From IMG/VR virus record IMGVR_UViG_2671181019_000008: 13,647 nucleotides of DNA; one strand, 5' to 3'. A model generated the notes under the pieces. That model was not told the DNA's origin. It ran no database searches and worked only from the letters and a program-made list of their open reading frames with translations. A program made the position numbers and the translations under genes. This DNA is from a virus (Duplodnaviria > Heunggongvirae > Uroviricota > Caudoviricetes). The first letter of the stretch is position 1. The number at the start of each line of letters is the position of its first letter. Shown here piece after piece: positions 1 through 13,647 of this stretch.

Positions 1-104
1 AGAGCGGGAAAAAATTAAAGGGCAGGCTCTTGAACTCGTACGCCAGAGTGGGCGCGAGACGTTACGACAACTGGAGGCTAAAACTGGGGCAACAAGATAT
101 CTGA
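1..104 (+). CDS. 3' end of an upstream early-region gene (partial; function not determined)
   Basis: Open frame from the window edge (codons from nt 3) ending ...RYDNWRLKLGQQDI with TGA at 102-104, overlapping the ATG at 104 of the next gene (TGATG coupling). Confidence 0.35.
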   Translation, partial: SGKKLKGRLLNSYARVGARRYDNWRLKLGQQDI

Positions 105-400
105 TGAGCGTTCTGGCCAGAGAGCTGGTTGCCAGTGGCGATGTATACAACTCTGGTTACGGGTTATTCCCGTCTGAACAGGCGCGTAAGGACTGGCAAA
201 ATGCCCGTAAAAAGCTCTCAAGGGCAAAGCTGAAGAAACCATCTGCGGTTGATCCGGACCTTATCTGGTCATTACCTGACGGAGAAATACGTCGCTACGA
301 CAGGCGCCTGAATATAATCTGTCGCGAGTGCCGGAAGAGTGAAGCTATGCAGCGTGTACTGGCGTTTTATCAGGGGAATTTTGAGGAGGTGGTGCGGTGA
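104..400 (+). CDS. ren: Ren-like protein (lambda Ren family)
   Basis: 98-aa ORF. C-terminal segment CRECRKSEAMQRVLAFY matches the lambda Ren C-terminus as I recall it (KECRQSAAMKRVLAVY); position after the replication module fits. Not verified by search. Confidence 0.6.
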   Translation: MSVLARELVASGDVYNSGYGLFPSEQARKDWQNARKKLSRAKLKKPSAVDPDLIWSLPDGEIRRYDRRLNIICRECRKSEAMQRVLAFYQGNFEEVVR

Positions 401-651
401 GTGAATCAAAATGCCAGGTTAATGGCAACAAGATAGAACCATGTGCAGCACTGGCAAAGTCCCTTGAGCGTGATGCTGAATACACGATGCGAAAAGGTCT
501 GCTGATATACAAAATCTGGAATGAGAGTTTAACTCGCGGTCCTGATTTTGTGATGTTGCGTTCCGGTGAATTTTCTAAATTACCAGTTCGGGTTTCATTT
601 TGTCCGTTCTGTGGTGAAAGTCTGAAAACGTGGGAGAACAGAAATGAATGA
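397..651 (+). CDS. Hypothetical small protein with C-terminal CPFC motif (possible zinc ribbon)
   Basis: 84-aa ORF. GTG start at 397 overlaps the ren stop (GTGA) and has a strong SD GAGGAGG 6 nt upstream. Confidence 0.5.
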   Translation: MSESKCQVNGNKIEPCAALAKSLERDAEYTMRKGLLIYKIWNESLTRGPDFVMLRSGEFSKLPVRVSFCPFCGESLKTWENRNE

Positions 652-955
652 AATTAAAGAAATACCAGTAGTACGTGATGAATATGGCTACTGGACGCAT
701 CCTGAATATGAAAAATTCTGTGACGGTCGGGAATATATTTCAACGGAAGAGTTTAACGCCTGGATGGAGGAAAATAATCTTCAATACGTCCTCTGCTTCA
801 GAGATGAAGGATGTGCTGACCTTGATGCGTGTGATGCTGATATTTCTGCATGGGAACCGGAACGACCAGAGGGCAATGGATGGTTTATTGGTTCAATACA
901 TGACACCGAAGATGGCCCGGTTTGTGTATGGCTGAGAAATAAGGCCGAAGCATAA
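644..955 (+). CDS. Hypothetical phage protein (103 aa, acidic)
   Basis: ATG at 644 overlaps the previous stop (649-651); SD GGGAG 7 nt upstream. Confidence 0.55.
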   Translation: MNEIKEIPVVRDEYGYWTHPEYEKFCDGREYISTEEFNAWMEENNLQYVLCFRDEGCADLDACDADISAWEPERPEGNGWFIGSIHDTEDGPVCVWLRNKAEA

Positions 956-1083
956 AGGCTATAAACCGACTAACAACTAAATACTGAAGATTTAAATCAG
1001 AAACGATTTTTATTAAATCCTTAACCGGAGGGATTCCTGCACCCTCAGAACATCAGGAGGCCGTCCGAAAGGGCGGTAGTGAA

Positions 1084-1266
1084 ATGCGAAAATTCAAAAT
1101 AATTATTGAAACGGGAATAGCCGGTGGAGATTTCGAGGATGAATTCGAAGTGGATGATGATGCAACACCAGATGAAATACAGGATGAAGCTAAAGATATT
1201 TTCTTTAACTACTGCAATTACTCATACCACGAAATAAAAGACGAAGAGGAAGAACAAAATGGCTGA
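1084..1266 (+). CDS. Hypothetical highly acidic small protein (60 aa)
   Basis: ORF in the supplied track; D/E-rich; first gene after the 956-1083 intergenic gap. SD weak. Confidence 0.4.
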   Translation: MRKFKIIIETGIAGGDFEDEFEVDDDATPDEIQDEAKDIFFNYCNYSYHEIKDEEEEQNG

Positions 1267-1435
1267 TTTTGGTTCAACTAAATATAACGCCAGTTTTGAA
1301 GAATGGCATGAACTGTTAATGGATTATGCAGAGTTACGCGGTGGAAGTGCCGCTGATGCTGAAGCATGGCGTGATGATTATGAAGCAGGGAAAACACCGG
1401 TCGAAGCATATTGTGATGAGTGGGGCGATGAATGA
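1259..1435 (+). CDS. Hypothetical small protein (58 aa; below the ORF-track cutoff)
   Basis: ATG 1259 overlaps the stop of the 1084-1266 gene; SD GAGGAAG 6 nt upstream; stop 1433-1435 overlaps the next ATG (ATGA). Manual translation MADFGSTKYNASFEEWHELLMDYAELRGGSAADAEAWRDDYEAGKTPVEAYCDEWGDE. Confidence 0.4.
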   Translation: MADFGSTKYNASFEEWHELLMDYAELRGGSAADAEAWRDDYEAGKTPVEAYCDEWGDE

Positions 1436-1791
1436 GCGAGATTAATTATCAGGAAGGGCATGAAAAGGCAGGGCAGGCAAAACCAGTGGCATGGCGATAT
1501 CGCTACGTGAAAAAAGGCGTTACAGACTTTCAGGGGAAGCAGTGGGTTGGTGACTGGAAATATGTCCCGACAAAAGAGGATTGTAACGACAGACCAAACT
1601 ATGAAATTCAGGCGTTATTCACGGCCCCGCCAGCTTCGGTGACATCAGAAGGACTGGTTAAAGCTGTGCGCTTTTATGAACAGGTACGGCGTGAGGATCC
1701 GCCAGTTGAAACCGGAGCATGGAAAGACGCTATTGACTGGGTACTCAAGGAGGCCTGCCTGGTTGTAAACACGGGCATCAAAGGAGGCTGA
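1432..1791 (+). CDS. Hypothetical phage protein (119 aa)
   Basis: ATG overlaps the upstream stop; uninterrupted ORF in the coupled chain. Confidence 0.55.
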   Translation: MSEINYQEGHEKAGQAKPVAWRYRYVKKGVTDFQGKQWVGDWKYVPTKEDCNDRPNYEIQALFTAPPASVTSEGLVKAVRFYEQVRREDPPVETGAWKDAIDWVLKEACLVVNTGIKGG

Positions 1792-2007
1792 ATGGGTATT
1801 GCCGCAAGTTATACCATGCATCTCTATTGTGATTGCCGCCAGTGTACGGATGGCAAATATCAGTCGCCAGATTTTGGTGAGTATATCGGTACGTCATGGG
1901 CTGGCTGTGCAAAAGAGGCACGTAAAGATGGGTGGCGAATAAGTGCCGACAAAACGCGTGCTTTTGCGCCAGGGCATAAAATTTTGAGGAGCAACAAAGG
2001 AGAGTGA
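1792..2007 (+). CDS. Hypothetical Cys-rich small protein (71 aa)
   Basis: ATG immediately follows the upstream stop; SD AAGGAGG 4-5 nt upstream; CxC...C...C pattern. Confidence 0.5.
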   Translation: MGIAASYTMHLYCDCRQCTDGKYQSPDFGEYIGTSWAGCAKEARKDGWRISADKTRAFAPGHKILRSNKGE

Positions 2008-2008
2008 T

Positions 2009-2227
2009 GTGCCTACATTATTCAGAAAAGAATATCCGCGAAAAAGTAGAGCGACAGAATTTTTGTTTCTCATTCTGTTTATCGTGTTGATGATACCGAT
2101 ATCCCCGTTAATTCTGGTATGGGGAATCGGAAAAATAATTGAGCCAGTTATTGAATTGTATAACGACGTGGTATGGGCTCCGTTCAACACACTGCACAAT
2201 AAAATTAATCCGTATAAGGAAAACTGA
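2009..2227 (+). CDS. Hypothetical small membrane protein (72 aa, one predicted TM helix)
   Basis: GTG start 2 nt after the upstream stop; SD AAAGGAGAG; hydrophobic stretch FLFLILFIVLMIPISPLILVWGIG. Confidence 0.45.
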   Translation: MPTLFRKEYPRKSRATEFLFLILFIVLMIPISPLILVWGIGKIIEPVIELYNDVVWAPFNTLHNKINPYKEN

Positions 2228-2228
2228 T

Positions 2229-2492
2229 ATGGCAACTTTGACAAAAAAAGAACAGGCATGGTTGAACGAATTACAGGACGTTCTTGATCGCTGTCCATCA
2301 CCGAAAAAAATTGGTTTTTACACCATTGGCGATAAAAGCATTTACCTGTATGACCTGCGCCGCATGGATGAAATCATGGAGGCTCTTGATAATCGTTCGT
2401 CGATGGATTGGTGTGTTGCTGTTCATGATATGAATGCAGGGTTTGATGAAAAGATTTTGTTCCCCTCATCAGTTGAAAGCACTGCGGGTTAA
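2229..2492 (+). CDS. Hypothetical protein (87 aa)
   Basis: Internal ATG of track ORF 2139-2492 preferred: SD AAGGAAA 5 nt upstream and it begins 2 nt after the previous stop. Confidence 0.5.
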   Translation: MATLTKKEQAWLNELQDVLDRCPSPKKIGFYTIGDKSIYLYDLRRMDEIMEALDNRSSMDWCVAVHDMNAGFDEKILFPSSVESTAG

Positions 2493-2502
2493 GGAGTAAC
2501 AC

Positions 2503-2670
2503 ATGACCACTATTACCAAAGAACGTATTGAATTGTTCATTAAAAACCCGCTTGAAAACGGGCTTACCCGTGGTGAACAAATGGAACTGGCACGGATTGC
2601 GCTGGCATCGCTGGAAGCAGAGCCGGTTGTGTTCTGGTTTGAAAAATATCAAGAAGGGGCTACGGCATGA
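2503..2670 (+). CDS. Hypothetical small protein (55 aa; below the ORF-track cutoff)
   Basis: SD AAGGAG 6 nt upstream of ATG 2503; stop overlaps the next ATG (ATGA). Carries an [10 protein letters not shown] motif that recurs in the next gene. Confidence 0.4.
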
Positions 2671-3011
2671 CGACTTTTACCAGAGAGCAGTTAATAGCTC
2701 ACGCAGAGGAGACTATTGAAGCACAGAGACTGTGCATACCGGGCACAATCGACCATGACATCATCCGCACATATAAGATGGATATTGCTGTTCTGGAAAT
2801 CGCACTGGTATCGCTGGCAGCAGAGCCAGCCGGTAAATTGCATGAATACAAACCAGTGGGATATCAGCGTCTGGTCGATGAGTTAACCATGCTGGTAAAG
2901 CAGTTAACCTGGCAACTGAGGAAAGCGAAGCCAGACTGCAAATTACCGGATAAGGCGATGAGTTATCTGGAGCGGAACGGACTGATAAGCGTGGAGGATA
3001 TTTTACGATGA
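2667..3011 (+). CDS. Hypothetical protein (114 aa)
   Basis: ORF in the supplied track, coupled to the upstream gene; contains [10 protein letters not shown]. Confidence 0.5.
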
Positions 3012-3091
3012 CCTGGCCTGAAGCATTAACAACGGTAGGAATTGCGATGGCGGTGGCGCTGGTGGTGTATTCGATTTGCCGCTGGGGATAA
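3008..3091 (+). CDS. Possible 27-aa hydrophobic micro-protein
   Basis: ATG 3008 overlaps the upstream stop (ATGA); translation [27 protein letters not shown] has one TM-like segment. Very short, so speculative. Confidence 0.25.
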
Positions 3092-3302
3092 AAACGGTTT
3101 GCGGGAAAAGGAGAGTTAAGTAGAATTGCAGCGGGTGCTTGAGGCTATCTGTCTCAGGCATGAACACCAAAAGGCAGATAGAGAAAAGCCCCAGTTAACA
3201 TTACGCGTCCGGCAAGACGCTTAACATTAATCTGAGGCCATATCTATGCTCTACACACGTAGGTTAGCCTCTTACGTGCCGAAAGGCAAGGAGAAGCAGG
3301 CT

Positions 3303-3458
3303 ATGAAGCAGCAAAAGGCGATGCTAATCGCCCTGATCGTCATCTGTTTAACCGTCATTGTGACGGCACTGGTAACGAGGAAAGACCTCTGCGAGGTACG
3401 AATCCGAACCGGCCAGACGGAGGTCGCTGTCTTCACAGCTTACGAACCTGAGGAGTAA
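3303..3458 (+). CDS. hokD: Hok/Gef-family type I toxin (51 aa), HokD/RelF-like
   Basis: MKQQKAMLIALIVICLTVIVTALVTRKDLCEVRIRTGQTEVAVFTAYEPEE has the Hok/Gef signature (TM helix, LTRK.LCE.R, TEVA.F.AYE) and matches E. coli HokD/RelF as I recall it. SD AAGGAGAAG upstream. Track ORF 3246-3458 is an in-frame upstream extension. Confidence 0.85.
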   Translation: MKQQKAMLIALIVICLTVIVTALVTRKDLCEVRIRTGQTEVAVFTAYEPEE

Positions 3459-3526
3459 GAGACCAGGCGAGGGAGAAATCCCTCGCCACCTCTGATGTGT
3501 CAGGCATCCTCAACGCACCCGCACTT

Positions 3527-3548
3527 AACCCGCTTCGGCGGGTTTTTT
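3527..3548 (+). terminator. Rho-independent terminator after hok; first copy of an exact 23-bp repeat
   Basis: CCCGC-TTCG-GCGGG stem-loop followed by T6. It is preceded by a perfect 9-bp stem GGCGAGGGA-gaaa-TCCCTCGCC at 3466-3487. The 23 bp TAACCCGCTTCGGCGGGTTTTTT (3526-3548) recur exactly at 5361-5383. Confidence 0.75.
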
Positions 3549-3549
3549 A

Positions 3550-3600
3550 TTGGTTGACAAAATTATGAATATGCACCAATATCTTGGTTGACAAAAGTCG
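3550..3600 (+). promoter_or_regulatory. Candidate promoter/operator of the cargo operon with tandem 13-bp direct repeats
   Basis: TTGGTTGACAAAA at 3550-3562 and again at 3584-3596 (34 bp apart); each contains a consensus -35 hexamer TTGACA. The region sits directly upstream of gene A. Confidence 0.5.
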
Positions 3601-3631
3601 TTTTTTGCACGGATTAGGCGGAGAAGTGTCT

Positions 3632-4225
3632 ATGCAGAACCATCCATTCCCTTGGGAGTTCTTTCCTGAGTTAACAGAGGAGCGTTTAACCATTATAGCT
3701 GAGGAGTTGCTCAGGATACAGGATATTACTCATGAGTTATTGTCATCGCCCTATGATGATAATTACACTCGTGGTGGTTGTACATTTGGGCGTCAGCGGC
3801 AGGCGTTGCTACAAATGTGCGTACGAAAGACATATGACTGGTTAAGACTACTTAATCCTGGCATGGATCTTACGTTTTCAATTGGGAATGTCCCTATTCG
3901 TTTCTTTACTGATGACGCAGATAACCCCAAGAAACGCGGTTTTTTCAAAAGAAATGATGCTGATCGACTCTTTGAGTCAGAGGAGACTACTCCAACTATG
4001 CATCGCTTTGTGGTTGAAAAGCCTGAATTTGAAGGCGAGGGTGGTAGAGTCATTTTTAATGGCTATAACGTGTTTGGTGAGATCGTGTCAACTTGGACAT
4101 ATGGTGCGGACCGTGTTGTTATGCTGAACTCTGTCGATGATGTACCTCCAGCACCGGTACCTATCGAACTAGAACCTATCAGTGCGTCTAAGACTGAGAA
4201 GGAAAAGAAACAAAATAGCAAATAG
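3632..4225 (+). CDS. Hypothetical protein, first gene of the cargo operon (197 aa from ATG 3632; no recognisable motif)
   Basis: Track ORF 3584-4225 begins with TTG inside the promoter repeat; ATG 3632 has SD GGAG 8 nt upstream. Appears less G+C-rich than the backbone (by eye). Confidence 0.6.
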   Translation: MQNHPFPWEFFPELTEERLTIIAEELLRIQDITHELLSSPYDDNYTRGGCTFGRQRQALLQMCVRKTYDWLRLLNPGMDLTFSIGNVPIRFFTDDADNPKKRGFFKRNDADRLFESEETTPTMHRFVVEKPEFEGEGGRVIFNGYNVFGEIVSTWTYGADRVVMLNSVDDVPPAPVPIELEPISASKTEKEKKQNSK

Positions 4226-4235
4226 TGGGTGAAAT

Positions 4236-5357
4236 GTGTTTAACGGTACTAATTTAAGACTTGCTCGTCTGTATCACGAGCTATCTCTGGAGCAGGTTGC
4301 TGAGAAGGTTGAAAAAACACGCCAGTATGTACAGCGACTGGAGTCTGGTTCAGCTACTCCATCCCCAGAGCTTATAAATAAATTAGCCGAGGTTTTGCGC
4401 GTGAAGCCCGCCTTTTTCGAAGGGCAGGAACATTCTCCTGTTAATGAAGAGATTGTACATTTTCGTAAACGCGCCTCGACAAGGATGTCAACGAAGCTAT
4501 CAACACTCGCTAAGGCTGAGTTTTATCGTCGTTTTATTGATGTATTTGAAGATAACCTTAATTTGTCACCTGTTCGATTTCCTGAATTTCGTGTCCATAC
4601 ACAAGAAGATATCGAGCGAGCGGCAGAAAAATGTCGTATTGAGTGGGGCTTAGGCTTTGGCCCAATTGAAAATATGACTCGCCTTGCCGAGAAACTTGGG
4701 GCGTTTGTTACTTCATTTGACTCCGTTTCGGATGAAGTAGATGCACTGTCTGTTCCTCTGCGAAGGCCTTTTATTGTTCGAAATACAGCTAAAAATTCAC
4801 CTTGTAGGCAACGCTTTGATATTGCTCATGAGGTTGCCCATTTGATTCTTCATGAAGGAATTTCTACTGGGGATAGATTAACTGAATCCCAGGCAAACCG
4901 TTTTGCCTCTGCTCTGTTGCTTCCCAGAACGTCGATGGCGAAATATTTTCCAAGACCTGTGGGGGGGAGGATAAATTGGCAGGGACTAAGCCAATTTAAG
5001 TTGACATGGAAAGTAAGTAAGGCTGCCATTGTTTACAGGGCTCATCAATTAGGACTTTTGACTGATGAGCAGTACAGAACTGCATTTATGGGGTTGAAAC
5101 GGAAAGGGGAAGCTATTGATGAAAAAGAAGATTATCTAATCCCTCATGAGCGTCCTGAGTTATTCCGTCGGGCTTTATCGTTTTTATTTGAAGAGTTAGG
5201 ATACGACCCACAGCGTATAGCTGATGAAATGGATATAGAAGTGGACATTTTTTATGAGTTAGTAGGAGATGATCTTCCTGCGGTTCATGAACTGCCAGGA
5301 AGTGGTGATGTTGTTTCACTACAATCTTACCGAACTCTTAGAGGCAAAATTCACTAG
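4236..5357 (+). CDS. Fusion protein: N-terminal XRE-family HTH plus C-terminal ImmA/IrrE-type (M78-like) HExxH metallopeptidase domain
   Basis: N-terminus LRLARLYHELSLEQVAEKVEKTRQYVQRLESG fits an XRE helix-turn-helix. HEVAH at nt 4827-4841, within FDIAHEVAHLILHEG, is a zinc-peptidase HExxH motif. Starts 10 nt after gene A. Confidence 0.75.
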   Translation: MFNGTNLRLARLYHELSLEQVAEKVEKTRQYVQRLESGSATPSPELINKLAEVLRVKPAFFEGQEHSPVNEEIVHFRKRASTRMSTKLSTLAKAEFYRRFIDVFEDNLNLSPVRFPEFRVHTQEDIERAAEKCRIEWGLGFGPIENMTRLAEKLGAFVTSFDSVSDEVDALSVPLRRPFIVRNTAKNSPCRQRFDIAHEVAHLILHEGISTGDRLTESQANRFASALLLPRTSMAKYFPRPVGGRINWQGLSQFKLTWKVSKAAIVYRAHQLGLLTDEQYRTAFMGLKRKGEAIDEKEDYLIPHERPELFRRALSFLFEELGYDPQRIADEMDIEVDIFYELVGDDLPAVHELPGSGDVVSLQSYRTLRGKIH

Positions 5358-5361
5358 GCAT

Positions 5362-5383
5362 AACCCGCTTCGGCGGGTTTTTT
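5362..5383 (+). terminator. Rho-independent terminator after the cargo operon; second exact copy of the 23-bp repeat
   Basis: TAACCCGCTTCGGCGGGTTTTTT at 5361-5383, 4 nt after the stop at 5357; identical to 3526-3548. Confidence 0.75.
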
Positions 5384-5458
5384 GTTTTACGTATTCTGGT
5401 TTACAATCTACAGGCCAGCCTGAACAACTGGCACCTGCTGCGCCAGCAGAGAAAGACG

Positions 5459-5737
5459 ATGGCGCACAATACCAAATCACACAATTCTGATAATTCAGCT
5501 GTCTTTGCCAGCAGGCACGGGCGGCGTTCCCGCACATTCAAATCTGATTGGTACCAGCATCCCCCATGTACTGAAGAACAAGCTGAATGGCTAATTCAGT
5601 GCTACCGCAGACACGGATACGAGATTAAGAAAGCCCTCAGCCTCGATTATCGTCACTGGATAATCTCCGTCAGGCTTCCTTACTCTGAACGCCCACCGCG
5701 TCCGTCCCGCACATTCCAGCAACGCATCTGGAGGTAA
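5459..5737 (+). CDS. Hypothetical protein (92 aa), possibly Rem-like by position
   Basis: ORF in the supplied track, immediately upstream of the DUF968 gene; the Rem assignment is by gene order only. Confidence 0.4.
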   Translation: MAHNTKSHNSDNSAVFASRHGRRSRTFKSDWYQHPPCTEEQAEWLIQCYRRHGYEIKKALSLDYRHWIISVRLPYSERPPRPSRTFQQRIWR

Positions 5738-5738
5738 C

Positions 5739-6785
5739 GTGCGGGTATTACTTCGACCTGTTCTGGTACCGGAACTCGGGCTGGTGATCGTTAAGCCGGG
5801 CCGTGAATCCATGCCGGTATTCCACAATACCCGGGTACTGGTGGAGCCGGAACCGAAAAGCATGCGTAATCTGTCGTCCGGGGTCGTTCCTGCCGTTCGC
5901 CAGCCGCTGGCGGAGGATAAATCATTACTGCCATTTTTCAGCGACGAACGAGTGAATCGTGCTGCTGGTGGCGCTGGCGCATTGTCTGACTGGTTACTGC
6001 GCCATGTTAAATCCTGCCAGTGGCCACACGGCGATTATCACCACAGTGAAACCGTCATTCACCGTTATGGTACCGGCGCAATGGTGTTGTGCTGGCACTG
6101 CGACAACCAGCTGCGCGACCAGACCTCCGAATCACTCGGGCAACTTGCTCACCAAAACCTGTCTGCATGGATGATTGACGTCATACGCCATGCAATGAAT
6201 GGCTCGCAGGAACGGGAATTATCGCTGGCTGAATTATCCTGGTGGGCGGTCCGCAATCAGGTGGCGGACGCGCTACCGGAAGCGGTATTACGTCGTTCGC
6301 TGGGGTTGCGTGCGGAAAAAATCCGCTCAATGTACCGTGAAAGCGACATCGTACCGGGAGAGCAGACCGCCACCAGCATACTGAAGCAGCGCACAAAAAA
6401 TCTTGCGCCGCTGCCTCACGCCCACCAGCAAAACCCGCCACAGGAAGAGACGGTGGTCAGCATTGCCGTTGATCCTGAGTCTCCGGAATCTTTCATGAAA
6501 CGACCTAAACGTCGCCGCTGGGTTAACGAGAAATACACACGCTGGGTGAAGACACAGCCGTGTGCGTGTTGTGGTAAGCCAGCCGACGATCCCCATCACC
6601 TGATTGGTCATGGTCAGGGCGGAATGGGGACAAAATCTCACGATATTTTCACGCTACCGCTGTGTCGGGAGCATCACAACGAGCTTCATGCGGATCCGCT
6701 GGCGTTCGAAGAAAAGCATGGTTCTCAGGTTGATTTAATTTTTCGTTTTCTTGATCACGCCTTTGCAACTGGCGTGCTTGGGTAA
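5739..6785 (+). CDS. DUF968-family protein (YdfU-like) with C-terminal Cys/His HNH-like cluster
   Basis: 348-aa ORF; GTG 5739 has SD GGAGG 4 nt upstream (alternative ATG at 5811). C-terminus CACCGKPADDPHHLIGHG...LCREHHNELH. Position upstream of rusA and Q. Confidence 0.65.
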   Translation: MRVLLRPVLVPELGLVIVKPGRESMPVFHNTRVLVEPEPKSMRNLSSGVVPAVRQPLAEDKSLLPFFSDERVNRAAGGAGALSDWLLRHVKSCQWPHGDYHHSETVIHRYGTGAMVLCWHCDNQLRDQTSESLGQLAHQNLSAWMIDVIRHAMNGSQERELSLAELSWWAVRNQVADALPEAVLRRSLGLRAEKIRSMYRESDIVPGEQTATSILKQRTKNLAPLPHAHQQNPPQEETVVSIAVDPESPESFMKRPKRRRWVNEKYTRWVKTQPCACCGKPADDPHHLIGHGQGGMGTKSHDIFTLPLCREHHNELHADPLAFEEKHGSQVDLIFRFLDHAFATGVLG

Positions 6786-6797
6786 AAGAGGTGACTG

Positions 6798-7172
6798 ATG
6801 CTCATAGATTTGGTTTTACCTTACCCGCCGACGGTGAACACTTACTGGCGACGCCGTGGCAGCACATATTTTATCTCGGAGGAGGGAAAGCGTTATCGCC
6901 GGGCTGTGGCGCTTATTGTTCGCCAGCAGCGGCTGAAATTAAGCCTGTCCGGAAGGCTGGCGATAAAGGTGATTGCAGAGCCACCGGATAAGCGTCGTCG
7001 CGACCTGGACAATATTCTGAAAGCACCACTGGATGCGCTGACGCATGCCGGACTTCTCATAGACGACGAGCAGTTTGATGAAATCAATATTGTGCGCGGT
7101 CAGCGCGTTCCTGGGGGGCGACTGGGCGTGAAGATTTACCCCATAATGCTTGAAGGGCAGGTCAAAAAATGA
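6798..7172 (+). CDS. rusA: RusA-type Holliday junction resolvase
   Basis: 124 aa; motifs TYWRRRG, RRRDLDNILKA, DAL, GGRL match the RusA family as recalled; SD AAGAGGTGA upstream. Confidence 0.85.
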   Translation: MLIDLVLPYPPTVNTYWRRRGSTYFISEEGKRYRRAVALIVRQQRLKLSLSGRLAIKVIAEPPDKRRRDLDNILKAPLDALTHAGLLIDDEQFDEINIVRGQRVPGGRLGVKIYPIMLEGQVKK

Positions 7173-7990
7173 AACTGGAAGATTTACCGAAATACTACTC
7201 CCCAAAATCCCCCGGCCTGACTGATGCATCGGCCTCAACGTCGAAAGATGCGCTGAGTATCACTGATGTGATGGCCGCGCAGGGCATGACACAGAATCGG
7301 GCTGAGATGGGGTTTTCTGCGTTCCTTGGGAAAATGGGCATCAGTATGAATGACAGGGCGCGGGCAACAGAATTACTGGCAGATTATGCACTCAGTCGGT
7401 GCGATCGTGTGGCGGCGTTGAGAAAACTTCCGGCAGAAATAAAACCGGTAGTGATGCGCATTATGGCTACGTATGCGTTTGAAGATTATGCCCGCAGTGC
7501 AGCGAGTAAAAAGCAGTGTCCTTGTTGCCGTGGGGAAAAATTTATTGAAAGCGAAGTTTTTACAAACAAGGTTCAGTATCCGGATGGTAAGCCGCCAGTA
7601 TGGGCAAAGTGCACAAAAGGCGTGTATCCGTCTTATTGGGAAGAATGGAAAAAAATCCGGGAGGTGGTGAAAGTTTCCTGTCCTGAATGTAAAGGGAAGG
7701 GAGAGATTTCCACTGCCTGTAAAGACTGCCGTGGGCGTGGTGTTGCCATTCATCGTGAAGAGTCAGAAAAACGGGGTATGCCTGTTATCAGGGACTGCCG
7801 GCGTTGTGGCGGTCGTGGCTATGAAAGACTGCCATCAACGGAGGCATTTAATGCCATACGCAAAGTGACGAGTGCTATCACGCTTGATACGTGGAAAAAA
7901 TCAGTGAAACGCTTTTACGATACGTTGGTGGTTCGGTTTGACATTGAAGAGGCATGGGCGGAGCGGCAGTTAAAGAGGGTAACGCGATAG
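7169..7990 (+). CDS. Q: Late-gene antiterminator Q-like protein (long, Cys-rich type)
   Basis: 273 aa; ATG overlaps the rusA stop (ATGA). Several CxxC pairs (CPCC, CPEC, CKDC, CRRC). Lies between rusA and the late promoter. Confidence 0.7.
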   Translation: MKLEDLPKYYSPKSPGLTDASASTSKDALSITDVMAAQGMTQNRAEMGFSAFLGKMGISMNDRARATELLADYALSRCDRVAALRKLPAEIKPVVMRIMATYAFEDYARSAASKKQCPCCRGEKFIESEVFTNKVQYPDGKPPVWAKCTKGVYPSYWEEWKKIREVVKVSCPECKGKGEISTACKDCRGRGVAIHREESEKRGMPVIRDCRRCGGRGYERLPSTEAFNAIRKVTSAITLDTWKKSVKRFYDTLVVRFDIEEAWAERQLKRVTR

Positions 7991-7995
7991 TATCG

Positions 7996-8035
7996 TTGAT
8001 TTTTCCCGAATCTGTGTTAAATTCGCCCTAACGAT
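7996..8035 (+). promoter_or_regulatory. Late promoter PR' with putative sigma-dependent pause element (qut region)
   Basis: -35 TTGATT (7996-8001), 16-bp spacer, -10 TAAATT (8018-8023), then 6 nt and AACGATGGG (8030-8038). Lambda PR' has TAAATT, 6 nt, AACGATGGG as I recall it. Confidence 0.5.
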
Positions 8036-8070
8036 GGGCGTTTTATGCCTGACGTTAGAGGAATTTTTAC

Positions 8071-8097
8071 AGCCCGCCTCCGAGTGGGCTTTTGTTG
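8071..8097 (+). terminator. tR'-like terminator ending a short PR' leader transcript
   Basis: AGCCCGC-ctccga-GTGGGCT stem (one G-U pair) followed by TTTTGTT, about 40-65 nt downstream of the inferred start. Confidence 0.45.
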
Positions 8098-8270
8098 ATC
8101 GTAAAAACAGTATGTATGGTATCTAACAATAGGTGATTCCTGCTTTGATGCAGGATGTGGATATGATACTGTATGTTTGTACACTATCAATATGATCAAA
8201 TAACCAGTAACCACTTTAAATGAATTGGTATTAAATTAGACTCTTCCCTACTTCATTTGGATAAGAGTTT

Positions 8271-9311
8271 ATGGTTTCTGAAACTGTAACGATTACGTTC
8301 TATAAAATTCAAAAATGTGGTTACTACCGTTACGGTGTTGTAAGCCCTGCATTTGGTGGTTGTGACGAGTTGCTCACAGATCTTGCTTTATGGGCAGAAG
8401 GGAAAAAACTCAAACAGACAAAGACATATGAAGCAAATGATGAGGTTTTACCTGCTTATCTTCTGGATATGAAACGTGCTGGTGACAATGTGGTTTTGTT
8501 GCTCTGGAATGAGGTTCCTTCTACAGATCAAAGTGTTCCATCGGTTCAGGAAGATACAGAATTTGGTACGGACCCAACAGTAATACTTAATTCAATCCAG
8601 AAGGGAAGTATTCCTGGTTTTGCTACTTACTTTTGGTTTATTCCATCCATGGATTTAGTGGCTAGCATCAAGTTTAACCATGCTTTGACGGGACAGAAGG
8701 CGATGCAATGCTATCTCTATCATTTTTTAAAACAGTCATCAAGCCACGTTGTGGCGGAAAGTGTGGAGAAGGAAGATGGCACGCATGAGGTGGTTATCAA
8801 GGGCTATAAAATTAACCCAACAGATGATGTGCTGCCAAAGAAAAAACACTATCCACAGTTCGTAGCTGGTTTAGTAAGAAATCCTGGTAAACATGAAGTT
8901 ATTAGGCAGAATGCTAATATTGTTTCTAAAATTGAAAAGGTTGTTGAACTTGATGTGTCAAAACCTGACGAGTTTAGCCTGTGGCAAAAACTATTGATTA
9001 ATATGAATATTAGCCATCCACAAACTGCAAATACCTCAACAAAAATTAGATATGAACTTTCTCCGAATGTTGATATTGATGACATCGAGGGGATGATTGA
9101 TGATTGGAATAAACATAGCGATACAAACTCTTGTGATTATGGTTTTGTATTTAAAGGAGATCCAACGACATATTGGCTCAGTCGTTCATTAGCACGAACC
9201 AAATTCCACTTGAATTTGGAGCGACAGGACGCCGAGTTTGTGTCCTCGGAATCTCTTCTTTCTGAACTTGTAGGCAAAAGGGAGCTCATATTACGCGAGG
9301 CGGGAATGTAG
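8271..9311 (+). CDS. Hypothetical soluble protein (346 aa), first gene of the AT-rich cargo pair
   Basis: Long ORF, clearly AT-rich by eye (first 60 nt about one-third G+C). No motif I can assign. Sits where Stx phages carry stx, between tR' and the holin. Confidence 0.65.
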   Translation: MVSETVTITFYKIQKCGYYRYGVVSPAFGGCDELLTDLALWAEGKKLKQTKTYEANDEVLPAYLLDMKRAGDNVVLLLWNEVPSTDQSVPSVQEDTEFGTDPTVILNSIQKGSIPGFATYFWFIPSMDLVASIKFNHALTGQKAMQCYLYHFLKQSSSHVVAESVEKEDGTHEVVIKGYKINPTDDVLPKKKHYPQFVAGLVRNPGKHEVIRQNANIVSKIEKVVELDVSKPDEFSLWQKLLINMNISHPQTANTSTKIRYELSPNVDIDDIEGMIDDWNKHSDTNSCDYGFVFKGDPTTYWLSRSLARTKFHLNLERQDAEFVSSESLLSELVGKRELILREAGM

Positions 9312-9821
9312 ATGAAAATCTTAGGTGGAATTTTTCTTATGGTCGTTCTGATTTTTTCTGCCTATTTTGGGAAGAATGTTCCCTTCTCATCCCAGTGGCC
9401 TCTTTATGAGGCCCTGCGAACTACAGCATCCATTATCTTTGCAGTTGTGGGAGCTTGGTTTGCGATAATCTATCCTGAACGATTAAAAAAATCATTTAGA
9501 GGTGGCAGTTCAGCGAGTGAATCTAATGGCAGTGGGATTACAAGGTTATTTACACCAATTGTACATTCTACTGCTATTTTAGCATCAGTTTTAATTATTG
9601 GCGTTGTTGCGCCATTAGTAAAACAGATACCGTTTTTTATAGATCACAAGGACATTTTTAGGGGCGCGTCATATGCCATTTTGGTTTTTTTAACTTTATG
9701 GCAACTGTTGACAGTAATTTATAGTCTCATTGGTCCTGATATGGTTAAAAGACATAACTCGTTCCAAGAGAGAGAGAAAGATGCTGCTAATTCTATATTA
9801 CCTGTCAATAAACGCAAATAA
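9312..9821 (+). CDS. Hypothetical polytopic membrane protein (169 aa, about four TM helices)
   Basis: ATG 9312 abuts the TAG of the preceding gene. Four hydrophobic segments: ILGGIFLMVVLIFSAYF, ASIIFAVVGAWFAIIY, AILASVLIIGVVAPL, ASYAILVFLTLWQLLTVIYSLI. Confidence 0.65.
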   Translation: MKILGGIFLMVVLIFSAYFGKNVPFSSQWPLYEALRTTASIIFAVVGAWFAIIYPERLKKSFRGGSSASESNGSGITRLFTPIVHSTAILASVLIIGVVAPLVKQIPFFIDHKDIFRGASYAILVFLTLWQLLTVIYSLIGPDMVKRHNSFQEREKDAANSILPVNKRK

Positions 9822-9916
9822 CATTTAAGTTAGTAAATTCGTTTCTTGAGTCGAGTCGCCATGTTGATGGTTTTTTATTTATTATAACGAATAACGGGTT
9901 CTTTTGATCATTTTAT

Positions 9917-9939
9917 CCGCCGTACTAGGCGGTTTTTTT
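9917..9939 (+). terminator. Rho-independent terminator downstream of the AT-rich pair
   Basis: CCGCC-gtacta-GGCGG followed by T7. Confidence 0.6.
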
Positions 9940-10133
9940 ATTCAGAATTTTGTTTCTTTATGGCTCGCTACGGCGGGCCTTTTTCATATCCGCGCCACGT
10001 CCGGCGTACATCGCATCAGATAACACCACACAAAAGGCATCTGCGGGTGTCTTTGACGGGGTGTTTTTTACGGGCCGCTGGTGGCCATTTTTTGTTTCCA
10101 TTACACAGCGCCCGCATCTGCGAGGTGGGGGTT

Positions 10134-10349
10134 ATGAAATCCATGGATAAGTTAACAACAGGTGTCGCCTATGGCACCTCCGCAGGCAGTGCTGGCTACT
10201 GGTTTTTACAGTTGCTCGATAGAGTCACGCCCTCACAGTGGGCAGCAATAGGTGTGCTGGGTAGTCTGGTGTTTGGCCTGTTGACGTATCTGACAAATCT
10301 TTATTTCAAGATTAAAGAAGATAAGCGTAAGGCTGCACGGGGAGAGTAA
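10134..10349 (+). CDS. S: Class II holin (pinholin), S21/EssQ-like, with dual-start motif
   Basis: [29 protein letters not shown]...[11 protein letters not shown] closely matches phage 21 S21 as recalled. M-K-S-M gives the antiholin/holin dual start. SD GAGGTGGGGG. The track ORF 9960-10349 N-terminal extension is rejected. Confidence 0.85.
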
Positions 10350-10353
10350 TTCA

Positions 10354-10698
10354 ATGACTCAAAACTATGAACTGATTGTGAAAGGGATCCGCAATTTTGA
10401 GAATAAAGTTACGGTAACTTTAGCGTTACGGGACAAAAAACGCTTTGACGGTGAAATTTTAGACCTGGACATCTCGCTGGACCGTGTTGAAGGTGCCGCG
10501 CTGGAGTTTTATGAGGCAGCAGCCAGAAGGAGCATCAGACAGGTCTTCCTGGATGTTGCTGCCGGGTTATGTGAAGGGGATGAGCAGTCGCCGGAAAAGC
10601 GCCCCGTAATTTTAGAGGCGCAGGATGTGTTGATAACCTACAGAGGAAAACTACCGGGAATAATTACGGGTTCTCTGAAGAGTCCGCCGAAATGGTAA
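10354..10698 (+). CDS. Hypothetical protein between holin and endolysin (YdfR/DUF1327-like by position)
   Basis: 114-aa ORF occupying the holin-endolysin gap, where Qin carries ydfR as I recall the gene order; family assignment is by position, not sequence. Confidence 0.5.
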   Translation: MTQNYELIVKGIRNFENKVTVTLALRDKKRFDGEILDLDISLDRVEGAALEFYEAAARRSIRQVFLDVAAGLCEGDEQSPEKRPVILEAQDVLITYRGKLPGIITGSLKSPPKW

Positions 10699-10936
10699 TT
10701 TTACCAGCATATTTTTCATCCAGTAATACAGCAAGCCGCCTGAAAGAGTCTTGTTGTTCCTGAGACCATTTGGGATTGCATGATTCAAACTGGATTGATG
10801 CCAGCGTTGATTGCATCTGTTCCCTTGGAATTGAGAATGCCAGATATGAGAAGGCGACGGTAAGGGTATTCACGTCTTCCCGAAGCCTGGAAATGCTGTC
10901 GAGCAACTCCTGTAGAGAAATGGTGTTATTGTCCAT
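10664..10936 (-). CDS. Hypothetical protein (90 aa) antisense within the lysis cassette
   Basis: Minus-strand ORF with SD GAGGA about 8 nt upstream of its ATG; its 3' end overlaps the 3' end of the + strand gene by 35 nt. Competes with + strand track ORF 10770-10976. Confidence 0.35.
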   Translation of the reverse strand: MDNNTISLQELLDSISRLREDVNTLTVAFSYLAFSIPREQMQSTLASIQFESCNPKWSQEQQDSFRRLAVLLDEKYAGKITISADSSENP

Positions 10937-11041
10937 AAATAATCCTCATGATTGTATTGACCTGTTAGCAGCCTGAGGCAACAGGCTGGAACTGATAAAC
11001 ATATCCAGGGCTCAGAAACCGATAAATCCTGATAAATATCC

Positions 11042-11575
11042 ATGAACGCAAAAATCAGATACGGCCTGTCGGCTGCCGTTCTGGCGCTGATTGCCGCTGG
11101 TGCGCCTGCGCCTGACATTCTCGACCAGTTTCTGGATGAAAAGGAAGGTAACCACACCACGGCATACCGTGATGGCGCGGGTATCTGGACCATCTGCCGC
11201 GGTGCCATCCTGGTGGATGGCAAACCTGTCGTTCCGGGCATGAAGTTGTCGAAGGAAAAATGCGACCGGGTTAACGCCATTGAGCGTGATAAGGCGCTGG
11301 CATGGGTGGAGAAAAACATCAAAGTGCCATTGAGCGAACCCCAGAAAGCGGGGATCGCGTCATTCTGTCCGTACAACATTGGTCCCGGTAAGTGTTTCCC
11401 GTCGACGTTTTACAGACGAATTAATGCAGGTGATCGCAGGGGAGCGTGTGAGGCGATTCGCTGGTGGATTAAGGACGGTGGCAGAGACTGCCGTATTCGT
11501 TCAAACAACTGCTACGGTCAGGTATCCCGTCGTGACCAGGAGAGCGCGCTGGCGTGCTGGGGTATCGACAGATAA
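11042..11575 (+). CDS. R: SAR endolysin (phage lysozyme, R21/RrrQ-like)
   Basis: N-terminal Gly/Ala-rich weakly hydrophobic segment GLSAAVLALIAAGA (signal-arrest-release type); catalytic region EKEGNHTTAYRDGAGIWTICRG with an E..D..T triad; matches E. coli RrrQ as recalled. Confidence 0.85.
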   Translation: MNAKIRYGLSAAVLALIAAGAPAPDILDQFLDEKEGNHTTAYRDGAGIWTICRGAILVDGKPVVPGMKLSKEKCDRVNAIERDKALAWVEKNIKVPLSEPQKAGIASFCPYNIGPGKCFPSTFYRRINAGDRRGACEAIRWWIKDGGRDCRIRSNNCYGQVSRRDQESALACWGIDR

Positions 11576-11665
11576 GCAGAATATTTTGCTGAAAAATGCG
11601 GTTTGCTTACACGGACGGATAACACGAAATCCTGCGAACTGACAAAAACTAAGTGAATAAAAGTA

Positions 11666-11700
11666 AAAACCCCGTTTGTTGGCTGCAAGCGGGGTTTTGT
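11666..11700. terminator. Terminator-like hairpin between endolysin and the small ORF/Rz
   Basis: ACCCCG (11669-11674) pairs with CGGGGT (11690-11695) around a 15-nt loop, flanked by an A-tract upstream and TTTTGTGTTT downstream (bidirectional-looking). Confidence 0.4.
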
Positions 11701-11734
11701 GTTTCCTGACTCTGGAAAAGTCAAAGGAGAAAGT

Positions 11735-11872
11735 GTGTTTGATTTTAGCAAACTGATTCGGGAGATTCGAGTGATGGCTGAAAAATTATCCACCTGGAAG
11801 TTCATTCTTATCTGGCTGGTGTTTGTGATTATGGCCTCCGGTTATTTCATCGGTCAGATACGCTGGTGGTGA
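11735..11872 (+). CDS. Possible 45-aa small membrane protein between endolysin and Rz (not in ORF track)
   Basis: GTG 11735 preceded by SD AAGGAG at 6-nt spacing (or ATG 11774 for 32 aa). Translation MFDFSKLIREIRVMAEKLSTWKFILIWLVFVIMASGYFIGQIRWW has a C-terminal TM helix. Stop TGA 11870-11872 lies 1 nt before the Rz ATG. Confidence 0.3.
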   Translation: MFDFSKLIREIRVMAEKLSTWKFILIWLVFVIMASGYFIGQIRWW

Positions 11873-11873
11873 A

Positions 11874-12341
11874 ATGAACCGCGTACTGTGCGTGGTCATC
11901 ATTGCCCTGCTGGTGGCCTGTGGTGCGCTTAGTCTGGGGCTGAATCATTACCGTGATAACGCCATAACCTACAAAGAGCAGCGCGATAAAAAAGTCAGTG
12001 AGCTGGAGCAGGCAAATGCAACCATTACTGATATGCAGCAGCGCCAGCGTGATGTTGCTGCACTTGATGCCAGATACTCGAGGGAATTAGCCGATGCGAG
12101 AGCTGAAAATGAAACTCTGCGCGCTGACGTTGCCGCTGGTCGTAAGCGCCTGCGGATCAACGCCACCTGCCCCGGTACCGTGCGTGAAGCCCCCACCACC
12201 TCCGGCGTGGATAATGCAACCGGCCCCCGACTGGCAGACACCGCTGAACGGGATTATTTCACTCTCAGAGAGCGGTTGATGCTGATGCAGAAGCAGCTGG
12301 AAGTGGCGCAGGAATATATCCGCACTCAGTGCCTGAAATAA
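11874..12341 (+). CDS. Rz: Rz inner-membrane spanin (i-spanin)
   Basis: 155 aa; N-terminal TM helix VLCVVIIALLVACGALSL followed by a coiled-coil-like charged region; follows the endolysin; contains an embedded +1-frame lipoprotein gene. Confidence 0.8.
   Translation: MNRVLCVVIIALLVACGALSLGLNHYRDNAITYKEQRDKKVSELEQANATITDMQQRQRDVAALDARYSRELADARAENETLRADVAAGRKRLRINATCPGTVREAPTTSGVDNATGPRLADTAERDYFTLRERLMLMQKQLEVAQEYIRTQCLK
12109..12279 (+). CDS. Rz1: Rz1 outer-membrane lipoprotein spanin (o-spanin), embedded in Rz
   Basis: MKLCALTLPLVVSAC has a lipobox (VSAC) followed by a Pro-rich mature region (PPAPVPCVKPPPPPAW); lies wholly inside Rz in another frame. Start taken at the second ATG of track ORF 12094-12279. 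Confidence 0.7.
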   Translation: MKLCALTLPLVVSACGSTPPAPVPCVKPPPPPAWIMQPAPDWQTPLNGIISLSESG

Positions 12342-12593
12342 GTTTTGCTGATGCGCGGTATTGTCGCCGTATCCCCGCATTAACAGAGACCGCAGCCCGA
12401 CCGGGAGACTCCTCTGCGCGAGTGTGCGGGGATAATCAAAAACGATACACACCGGGGTTTACCGCGTTAACGGAGCGCGGCGTTGTCCCCTCATAGTCGC
12501 CTGTCCGGTGCGATGGTGGAAGAAACTGGACTACATTAAAAATGATAACCATTATCATTTTGCGGGTCCTTTCCGGCGATCCGGGCCGTTACG

Positions 12594-12605
12594 GGGCGGC
12601 GACCT
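12594..12605. other. cosN cohesive-end site, GGGCGGCGACCT (lambda type)
   Basis: GGGTCCTTTCCGGCGATCCGGGCCGTTACG followed by GGGCGGCGACCTCGCGCGTTTTCACTATTTATGA matches the lambda right-end/left-end junction as recalled. Confidence 0.8.
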
Positions 12606-12643
12606 CGCGCGTTTTCACTATTTATGAGATTTTTTGAGGGGGT

Positions 12644-12791
12644 GGTTGTTGTTTAATTGTTTGGTATATCTAATTGATAAGTAAGGTGAAAATAAAATAA
12701 ATACAACAACCTTACGATGTGTTTTGATGTCGTCAATGCGAAAAATGTCAATGATATCAAATGGTTTTGCAAAAACACATGGTTGTTGTTT
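12644..12791. repeat. cosB-like region with three copies of a GGTTGTTGT element (candidate Nu1 R sites)
   Basis: GGTTGTTGTTT at 12644-12654 and 12781-12791 (direct); inverted copy ACAACAACC at 12703-12711. Lies between cosN and the Nu1 start. Confidence 0.5.
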
Positions 12792-12821
12792 CGCTTTTTA
12801 TCGATGACTTATGGAGAGGAG

Positions 12822-13328: not shown

Positions 13329-13647
13329 TATGATGGCCGCCGTTTCGGTTGCGCTGCAGCCTCTGGTCAGGGTTGTACCGATGACGGCAGTTGAATGGGC
13401 TGACCAGTATTATTATCTGCCGAAAGAATCCTCATACGGTGACGGCGAATGGAAAACGCTGCCGTTCCAGATCGCCATCATGAACAGTATGGGGAATGAT
13501 CAGATCCGCACTGTTAATCTGATTAAATCTGCCCGTGTTGGCTATACAAAGATGTTGCTGGGAGTCGCCGGGTATTTTATTGAGCATAAATCCCGAAACA
13601 GTCTGCTTTTTCAGCCCACGGATTCTGCCGCTGAAGATTTTATGAAG
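13300..13647 (+). CDS. A: Terminase large subunit A (5' part; continues beyond the window)
   Basis: Manual translation from ATG 13300 gives MNISEQQLNNMMAAVSVALQPLVRVVPMTAVEWADQYYYLPKESSYGDGEWKTLPFQIAIMNSMGNDQIRTVNLIKSARVGYTKMLLGV..., matching the lambda gpA N-terminus (MNIS..., TAVEWAD..YYLPKES, KSARVGYSKMLLGV). It overlaps the Nu1 3' end as in lambda. Confidence 0.85.
   Translation, partial: MNISEQQLNNMMAAVSVALQPLVRVVPMTAVEWADQYYYLPKESSYGDGEWKTLPFQIAIMNSMGNDQIRTVNLIKSARVGYTKMLLGVAGYFIEHKSRNSLLFQPTDSAAEDFMK

Follow-up and report, generated by a model that had tools for sequence, protein, structure and literature searches.

A probable RosmerTA toxin-antitoxin cassette bracketed by a repeated terminator hairpin after hok in a lambda-like prophage

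The nin region of the lambda-like prophage analyzed here carries, between hok and the DUF968/RusA/Q genes, a two-gene cassette with a copy of the same short repeat on either side, which raises the question of what this cassette encodes and how it came to lie between the two copies. The window (the whole stretch of viral DNA that was analyzed, 13,647 nucleotides) was searched in full for the 23-mer TAACCCGCTTCGGCGGGTTTTTT, which occurs as two exact copies on the + strand (3526-3548 and 5361-5383), and no further match was found in the window with up to three mismatches allowed (0 expected from 200 shuffles). In a repeat search the pair grows to 26 nt (96% identity, spacing 1835). Each copy folds into a hairpin of 7 bp that is capped by a UUCG loop and followed by a U6 tail, and 3 nt separate the end of the rmrA stop codon (5357) from the second copy. 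An earlier note on this DNA had described an exact 23-bp terminator duplication; it is confirmed at both places, and the coordinates given in that note were all correct. The coordinates of the locus are collected in Table 1. The hok gene upstream is annotated as hokD by RefSeq in a near-identical locus.

Table 1 Features of the hok-rmrTA locus, with positions in the window.
Feature	Position	Strand	Basis and remarks
hok/mok/sok type I toxin-antitoxin locus	3133-3458	+	Pfam HOK_GEF 2.9e-23, Rfam sok; intact
sok (RF01794)	3133-3308		Rfam, 117 bits
mok ORF	3246-3458	+	Within hok/mok/sok locus
hok CDS	3303-3458	+	Within hok/mok/sok locus
Terminator copy 1 (hok 3' end)	3526-3548	+	Predicted; stem AACCCGC/GCGGGTT, UUCG loop, T6
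rmrTA promoter/operator region	3550-3613	+	Two tandem units GGTTGACAAA-N11-TGCAC; putative operator
Proposed promoter P1	-35 TTGACA 3555-3560; -10 CAATAT 3578-3583	+	17-nt spacer; conservation
rmrT, toxin/effector, 197 aa	3632-4225	+	PADLOC RmrT PDLC03929; = WP_001179381.1
rmrA, antitoxin/regulator, 373 aa, GTG start	4236-5357	+	PADLOC RmrA PDLC03943; = WP_000481765.1
Terminator copy 2 (cassette 3' end)	5361-5383	+	Predicted; precedes DUF968-RusA-Q genes

Comparison with related phages, which the earlier note had proposed, revealed a presence/absence indel located exactly at the terminator. In phage Evi and in about 56 of 128 hok loci, one terminator copy is joined straight to the same downstream sequence; copy 1 is the sole copy in such empty-site phages, and GTTTTACGTATTCTGGTTTACAAT, which lies directly 3' of copy 2 in the window, is the same sequence that follows their single terminator. 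About 41 of the 128 hok loci have rem instead, and the rmrTA cassette itself is carried by 23 of 5,426 E. coli genomes. The lambdoid moron of Juhala and Hendrix is an autonomous promoter-gene(s)-terminator unit inserted between two genes that related phages have side by side. The cassette agrees with the classical moron in being a promoter-genes-terminator unit, with a putative promoter and a predicted terminator, that is present or absent between its neighbors, but it differs from the classical description, as far as found, in that one terminator hairpin recurrently brackets five cassettes at this site. Of the earlier proposal that a moron had been dropped into a terminator with duplication of the target, the indel and the moron stand, while target duplication is only one way in which the repeat could have arisen.

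The product of the downstream gene of the cassette matches the PADLOC RmrA model PDLC03943 (4.3e-201) with residues 1-368 on a 370-position model, and it combines an XRE HTH (Pfam HTH_3, 1.5e-12, aa 7-61) with a Zn-peptidase domain (Pfam Peptidase_M78, 8.4e-17, aa 151-269), which upholds the HTH-metallopeptidase fusion that had been recognized from the letters of the sequence. The peptidase motifs of RmrA are intact, both HEVAH (H198-E199-x-x-H202, nt 4827-4841) and ESQANRFA at aa 217 (E217-x-x-A-N-x-F-A). The C-terminal ~70 aa are variable, and in strain 2011EL-1370-2 a natural G7 to G6 frameshift splits rmrA while rmrT is intact; unless this is a sequencing error, either RmrA can do without its C-terminus or that strain tolerates the toxin. 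The product of the upstream gene aligns with residues 1-197 on the 198-position PADLOC RmrT model PDLC03929 (5.5e-93) and also matches phrog_5786. The cassette thus holds the arrangement by which RosmerTA is recognized, namely an RmrT-family gene that is adjacent to and co-oriented with its partner (rmrT-rmrA gap of 10 nt), and an XRE HTH fused to an M78 peptidase with an intact HExxH. The rmrT-to-rmrA order, a gap of 4-13 nt and a repeat-bearing promoter are kept in Phytobacter, Serratia and Aeromonas.

Pairs of an M78 (ImmA/IrrE) metallopeptidase and an XRE HTH regulator are also found in ICEBs1 (ImmR/ImmA) and in CBASS (CapH/CapP), where the ImmA or CapP protease cleaves the repressor and switches on the element or the defence operon. 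The likeness of the two RmrA domains to these proteins suggests another reading, in which the downstream gene would encode a damage- or signal-activated protease-regulator of the ImmR/ImmA or IrrE type that governs the expression of prophage or host genes, as in induction, and the upstream gene would be an accessory rather than a toxin; a split HTH and ImmA-like pair does occur at the same site in other prophages. We consider this reading highly improbable. HTH and protease are separate proteins in ICEBs1 and CBASS, whereas in the window they are fused and have a toxin partner, and the full-length best matches of the fusion are to RmrA models, which far exceed those to PADLOC capP (2.8e-17) and capH (5e-10). 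Moreover, the nin region in which the cassette sits is distant from the immunity/integrase region, and the cassette is missing from most otherwise similar prophages and therefore dispensable for the phage's own regulation. An induction switch was rejected on these grounds of location and dispensability, and the genetics of a closely related module, described next, also argue against it.

Rousset et al. reported that a prophage module of E. coli E101, E101_02645/E101_02644, makes clpP essential, and that this lethality is suppressed by knockdown of the toxin, by the toxin substitution T46S or by excision of the prophage (bioRxiv 10.1101/2020.05.25.114553). The antidote E101_02644 corresponds to WP_000481765.1 and the toxin to WP_001179380.1 (bioRxiv 10.1101/2020.05.25.114553). 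RmrA of the window is 100% identical to this antidote (373 of 373 residues match the UMNF18 protein annotated under the same accession), and both modules are prophage-borne. The toxins were compared by neighboring accessions: RmrT of the window (WP_001179381.1) has Thr46, which lies inside DDNYTRG, the most conserved motif; WP_001179382.1 differs from it by E17V alone; and a search for WP_001179380.1 in eight module-bearing genomes returned only WP_001179381.1, WP_001179382.1 and WP_053272765.1. Judged by these sequences, RmrT of the window is probably an allele of the E101 toxin family. Since knockdown or T46S relieves the lethality, the product of the upstream gene in E101 is toxic, which is at odds with an accessory role. 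Later papers name the E101 module a Rosmer system, and a Tn-seq study in Pectobacteriaceae cites it as RmrT. Dependence on ClpXP is a Rosmer trait seen in E. coli E101, in S. pneumoniae RipAB (PMC12795458) and in the Pectobacteriaceae Tn-seq study. The RipAB antitoxin likewise has an XRE HTH and an ImmA-like peptidase, and its toxin makes ClpX essential, but the host is Gram-positive and the target of the RipA toxin is the DnaN sliding clamp (PMC12795458).

Evidence for phage defence comes from Rosmer systems whose toxins are unrelated to RmrT of the window. Millman et al. showed that RosmerTA of E. coli OLC-716 protects against phages and that an rmrA deletion was unobtainable, possibly because of toxicity (bioRxiv 10.1101/2022.05.11.491447). 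That system is also a two-gene, toxin-first operon with a ~370-aa antitoxin that carries an XRE HTH and an M78 Zn-peptidase; its verified RmrA (Millman Table S2/S11) shares 31% identity with RmrA of the window over 311 aa (E 2e-38), while no sequence similarity could be detected between its verified RmrT (239 aa) and the 197-aa RmrT of the window. A Rosmer system of Gordonia phage Kita, with a homologous RmrA and a toxin unrelated to RmrT of the window, gives anti-phage protection as well. In PD-lambda-2 it is the Xre-peptidase fusion that is the toxic component, and roles may therefore differ between relatives.

The cassette could also be a pure addiction or stabilization module, that is, a toxin-antitoxin pair that penalizes loss of the prophage, as the adjoining hok/sok does, and has no role in defence. 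Experiments on the module are limited to its toxicity when clpP is knocked down and to suppressors in which the prophage is excised or the toxin mutated; the cassette adjoins hok/sok, itself a post-segregational killer, at a site that also hosts a Fic/Doc-type pair; and our literature search found no report of phage protection or challenge for the RmrT subtype of the window. However, the OLC-716 and Kita systems, both with a homologous RmrA, protect against phages, a homologous cassette of Serratia occupies the P2 gpA-portal defence hotspot, and the prophage studied here encodes another candidate defence pair, PDC-M18. Addiction and defence can coexist, and addiction alone seems to us unlikely. 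We consider it very probable that 3549-5360, together with one terminator copy, is a RosmerTA toxin-antitoxin/anti-phage cassette, a moron after hok/sok and the same module as that of E101. The idea in the earlier note that the prophage may carry a defence, abortive-infection or toxin-like system, its effector being the upstream gene, fits both the RosmerTA class and the genetics on the identical antidote. The system is already known, in that it is catalogued in PADLOC/DefenseFinder and partly tested experimentally.

A Pfam search with RmrT plus 41 diverse family members gave no match, and searches of PDB sequences with family profiles returned nothing at E<=1 from alignment A2 and interleukin-1 beta at chance level only, with E of at least 0.06, from alignment A5. 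When 1.84 billion representatives were searched exhaustively with an HMM, 415 RmrT relatives emerged, nearly all of them stand-alone proteins of ~200 aa with no informative fusions; one match of 5,046 aa, made up of 12 short stretches, seems to be a repeat artefact. An AF2 model (pLDDT 82.3, pTM 0.74) predicts two long helices and a six-stranded beta sheet, with a disordered, Lys-rich tail at the C-terminus. This predicted fold hints weakly at a PD-(D/E)xK restriction-endonuclease-like core, and on that account DNA cleavage may be offered as a low-confidence guess at how RmrT acts.

Upstream of rmrT, TTGGTTGACAAAA forms an exact 13-nt direct repeat (3550-3562 and 3584-3596, spacing 34). The two-unit repeat layout is kept 5' of rmrT in Phytobacter, Serratia and Aeromonas, and also in the two other RmrTA cassettes found at the hok site. 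A consensus promoter scan of the TTGACA repeats called no promoter because the -10 matches at 3/6 positions only; we infer from the conservation that TTGACA-17-CAATAT is the putative rmrTA promoter. The operon would be transcribed in the lysogen from this sigma-70 promoter of its own, and the N-terminal XRE HTH of RmrA probably binds the two repeat units that overlap it, which would make the operon autoregulated. Genetics on the E101 module and on other Rosmer systems has shown a toxic RmrT that is checked by RmrA together with host ClpXP, so that loss of ClpP/ClpX or of RmrA frees the toxin, and RmrT of the window would behave likewise. By analogy with the family, phage infection may disturb this check by way of RmrA, ClpXP or expression, and free RmrT would then halt the cell and abort the infection. 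The second terminator copy may serve to block constitutive cassette transcription from entering the Q antiterminator region, and the hairpin may act as a junction for exchange of rmrTA and other cassettes among lambdoid phages.

How the repeat arose is best considered alongside the other cassettes at this site. Four of these were found, namely two further RmrTA types, a Fic/Doc pair and a split HTH plus ImmA-like set, each followed by a second hairpin copy, so that a copy of the ~20-23-bp hairpin and T-run closes each of five different hok-site cassettes. With five cassettes at one site, the post-hok terminator is therefore a cassette hotspot; no relevant description of a defence hotspot beside hok turned up in a search of the literature. 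Were the 23-bp repeat a true target-site duplication, a dedicated hairpin-recognizing insertion mechanism would have acted here and the cassettes would have arrived independently. The use of exactly the same point by all five would be in keeping with this, as would the finding that the Fic/Doc cassette is joined to four different downstream backgrounds, the breakpoints falling at the T-run, and that the hairpin core is lacking elsewhere in 1.31 Mb of DNA from hok-bearing phages. However, genes for a transposase, integrase or recombinase are absent both within and beside the hok-site cassettes, no multi-cassette arrays were seen at the hok loci examined, and 23 bp is atypical for transposase duplications. 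Furthermore, the Phytobacter cassette, the closest relative away from hok, already has a near-identical terminator of its own, likewise with a UUCG loop and at the corresponding 3' position, in which the stem shows a compensatory change. We therefore regard target-site duplication as doubtful. The Phytobacter example indicates that cassettes may move together with such a 3' terminator, in which case recombination inside the short hairpin that they share could bring about the exchange. Phage recombinases of the Red/RecT/Erf type could serve such recombination. Short-homology recombination, rather than transposition, is the most likely route of cassette exchange.

Two kinds of mobile element were also considered and rejected as the source of the cassette. 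A transposon or IS origin was set aside because there is no transposase, the cassette consists of rmrT and rmrA only and the 23-26-nt repeat is the whole hairpin plus T-run; the ends of the rmrTA cassette also showed no terminal inverted repeats. For an integron cassette, arrays and a nearby integrase are absent, and the element at issue is an 18-nt terminator stem-loop. The resemblance to integrons is limited to the same hairpin after each cassette.

As to the system itself, the window adds little that is new, being one more well-delimited instance of RosmerTA. It does link the RmrT/RmrA subtype of PADLOC/DefenseFinder with the ClpP-dependent E101 module and with a precise prophage site that includes the native promoter and terminator, and 3526-5383 is a clean construct for testing both defence and the restraint of the toxin by RmrA, its peptidase and ClpXP. 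The post-hok hairpin site, with at least five toxin-antitoxin/defence cassettes, could aid the mining of cargo in lambdoid prophages and could help explain how such cargo moves. More speculatively, the hok hairpin (AACCCGCTTCGGCGGGTT plus T-run) might be a dedicated exchange site for toxin-antitoxin/defence cassettes, attC- or 'linker'-like, an idea we hold to be rather improbable; if true, it would constitute a previously undescribed defence hotspot with a sequence-directed mechanism.

The two genes between the terminator copies are, by sequence, a RosmerTA toxin–antitoxin system. Gene A contains no Pfam match, yet aligns over its full length with the PADLOC RmrT model PDLC03929 (5.5e-93, residues 1-197 of 198 positions). 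Gene B matches the RmrA model PDLC03943 at full length (4.3e-201), with the second-best RmrA model far weaker, and carries HTH_3 (residues 7-61) and Peptidase_M78 (residues 151-269), the fusion that the earlier note had proposed. RosmerTA consists of two proteins, RmrT and RmrA, with a verified example in E. coli OLC-716 (Millman et al., bioRxiv 10.1101/2022.05.11.491447). The OLC-716 RmrA is similar to gene B (31% identity over 311 residues, E 2e-38), whereas no similarity of its RmrT (239 aa) to gene A was detectable, which fits the description of Rosmer as a single antitoxin family combined with many unrelated toxins. On all sequence-level criteria the rmrT–rmrA module classifies as RosmerTA, and the system is already present in the literature and in standard defence-annotation tools.

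Rousset et al. (bioRxiv 10.1101/2020.05.25.114553) traced the essentiality of clpP in E. coli E101 to a prophage toxin–antitoxin pair, in which E101_02645 (WP_001179380.1, for which no domain is given) is the toxin and E101_02644 (WP_000481765.1) the antidote. Suppressors had excised the prophage or carried toxin T46S, and transfer of the pair made clpP essential in K-12 too. The gene B homolog of E. coli UMNF18 is annotated in RefSeq as WP_000481765.1 and is identical to gene B (373/373). Gene A is identical to WP_001179381.1, and because WP_001179382.1 differs from it only by E17V, the E101 toxin, judged from these neighbouring accession numbers, is very probably a further near-identical allele. 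Residue 46 of gene A is Thr and lies within DDNYTRG, the most conserved motif of the toxin family. In a 2025 Tn-seq preprint the E101 module is named explicitly as an RmrT, and in Pectobacteriaceae rmrA and clpX are reported to be essential in Rosmer-carrying strains only; with respect to ClpX, the Rosmer-type pair RipAB of S. pneumoniae behaves alike, its toxin acting on the DnaN clamp (PMC12795458). Toxicity and ClpP dependence of the present module would follow from the literature on the identical antidote. The PADLOC assignments and the E101 genetics bear out the proposal of a toxin-like or defence module in which gene A is the effector. An ImmR/ImmA-type induction switch was considered for this module and rejected.

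The order rmrT–rmrA, with the toxin always first and a gap of 4-13 nt, is kept in Phytobacter (lambdoid prophage), Serratia (P2-like prophages) and Aeromonas (an element), as is the GTG start of rmrA with GGTGAAA upstream. Two tandem GGTTGACAAA-N11-TGCAC units precede rmrT in all three settings and in two diverged hok-site Rosmer cassettes; the first unit provides a perfect -35 element, followed by a 17-nt spacer and a -10 element (CAATAT/CAACAT). We infer that the repeat region is a promoter with two operators bound by the RmrA HTH. The metal and catalytic positions of the RmrA peptidase are intact (H198, E199, H202; motif E217-x-x-A-N-x-F-A). The last ~70 residues of RmrA, unalignable between subtypes, may be the part specific to each toxin. 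Exhaustive profile searching yielded 415 RmrT relatives, nearly all of them stand-alone proteins of ~200 aa, and no Pfam or PDB sequence match came up for the family; that RmrT is a nuclease is a low-confidence guess. The G7 tract inside rmrA is G6 in E. coli O6:H16 2011EL-1370-2 (locus L136, 1805-1810), which splits RmrA into ORFs of 245 and 118 aa and leaves rmrT intact. Records of 3-4 contigs contain the split forms (WP_249540602.1 / WP_249540601.1), which reflect either a sequencing error or a tolerated natural antitoxin truncation.

Features of the cassette and its prophage (window positions)
Feature	Position	Strand	Details
sok	3133-3308		Rfam, 117 bits
hok/mok ORF	3246-3458		Pfam HOK_GEF 2.9e-23
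Terminator copy 1	3526-3548		hok 3' end
13-nt exact direct repeat TTGGTTGACAAAA	3550-3562 and 3584-3596		between terminator copies
-35 element	3555-3560		TTGACA, proposed
ORF A (rmrT)	3632-4225		197 aa
ORF B (rmrA)	4236-5357		373 aa, GTG start
HEVAH motif	4827-4841		in rmrA
G7 homopolymer	4961-4967		in rmrA
Terminator copy 2	5361-5383		
PDC-M18A-like ORF	8271-9311	+	4.6e-197
PDC-M18B-like ORF	9312-9821	+	3.4e-75
phrog_22558 ORF	10870-11379	-	4.3e-66
Lysozyme gene	11042-11575	+	Pfam Phage_lysozyme 5.9e-24

Across the whole window, the 23-mer TAACCCGCTTCGGCGGGTTTTTT occurs as two exact copies, with no third site at up to 3 mismatches and no match in 200 dinucleotide-preserving shuffles; a repeat search extended it to 26 nt (96% identity, spacing 1835). 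Each copy was called intrinsic-terminator-like by a terminator scan and folds into a 7-bp stem with a UUCG tetraloop, then six U, and the first ends an intact hok/mok/sok locus. Repeat, ORF and motif checks reproduced every coordinate of the earlier note.

In phage Evi, hok is followed by a single terminator copy, beyond which the sequence is the one found downstream of the cassette, so that the window has exactly the cassette and one hairpin copy (1,835 bp) in addition. Among the hok loci listed (at least 128, of which at least 120 are IMG/VR contigs), ~56 are empty like Evi and ~41 have rem instead; alignment thus establishes the segment as a presence/absence indel bounded by the terminator, as had been anticipated. 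The cassette is found in 23 of 5,426 complete E. coli genomes, always at the hok-terminator site, the flanks being found in 4,751. In 14 of these 23 the match starts at window position 3357 (query position 158) with the hok N-terminus truncated, which places a mosaic breakpoint inside hok and leaves terminator–cassette–terminator intact. A ParA-family gene lies upstream in five loci examined (L006 and L134-L137, from E. coli UMNF18 and ETEC strains).

Four further cassettes occupy the same post-hok position among the hok loci listed, each followed by a second hairpin copy: a diverged RmrTA before rem (RmrT 24% and RmrA 43% identical to those of the window; also 1,835 bp), a third RmrTA in the window's own background with another toxin family and one loop change in its hairpin copy, a small ORF plus Fic/Doc pair that recurs against four different backgrounds downstream, and a split HTH, ImmA-like and Cys-rich set. 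The position is therefore a hotspot of five cassettes, three of them RosmerTA types (window 3526-5383; loci L002, L012, L030, L033, L073, L089, L109 and others), and a literature search found no published description of it. Away from this position, the hairpin core was absent from the 1.31 Mb of hok-bearing phage DNA examined.

Five cassettes at one point, with a hairpin copy after each, is what a true target-site duplication would leave, as in the earlier note's moron inserted into a terminator. However, the Phytobacter cassette, away from hok, already has its own near-identical terminator at the homologous 3' position (CCTGCTTCGGCAGG versus CCCGCTTCGGCGGG; loop unchanged, compensatory stem change), and none of the hok-site cassettes encodes a transposase or integrase, making such a duplication the less likely origin. 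Since, in addition, no tandem cassettes were found at any hok locus listed and window–Phytobacter homology starts directly after the hok T-run, we tentatively favour an exchange of promoter–genes–terminator units through recombination in the short hairpin that they share; the indel at the terminator stands, and its origin by target duplication is less favoured. A transposon or integron cassette was rejected for want of transposase, integrase or tandem cassettes.

Cargo also differs elsewhere in the prophage. Two ORFs flanked by the Q antiterminator and the holin, where Stx phages have stx, show no Pfam match and match both components of a PADLOC candidate system; a second candidate defence pair, PDC-M18-like, is thus probable in this prophage. 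Downstream of Q, at the place that the PDC-M18-like pair takes in the window, a near-identical prophage of E. coli Ec-U5 carries a DNA methyltransferase and three tRNAs, and no tRNA genes occur within window 1-13647; by sequence comparison, cargo has thus been swapped at the Q-to-lysis junction as well. The phrog_22558 ORF overlaps the lysozyme gene on the opposite strand, and antisense ORF calls may be the source of this PHROG family.

The strong terminator at the cassette 3' end would shield DUF968-RusA-Q from constitutive cassette transcription. In Serratia (L130/L131, 4001-5729), a 58%-identical RmrT and its RmrA lie between the P2-type gpA and portal genes of a P2-like prophage, where a P2 defence hotspot has been described, which places the same cassette family in hotspots of two unrelated phage types. 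A role of the hok terminator hairpin as a dedicated site of cassette exchange, defining a lambdoid defence and toxin–antitoxin hotspot, is possible but not probable.
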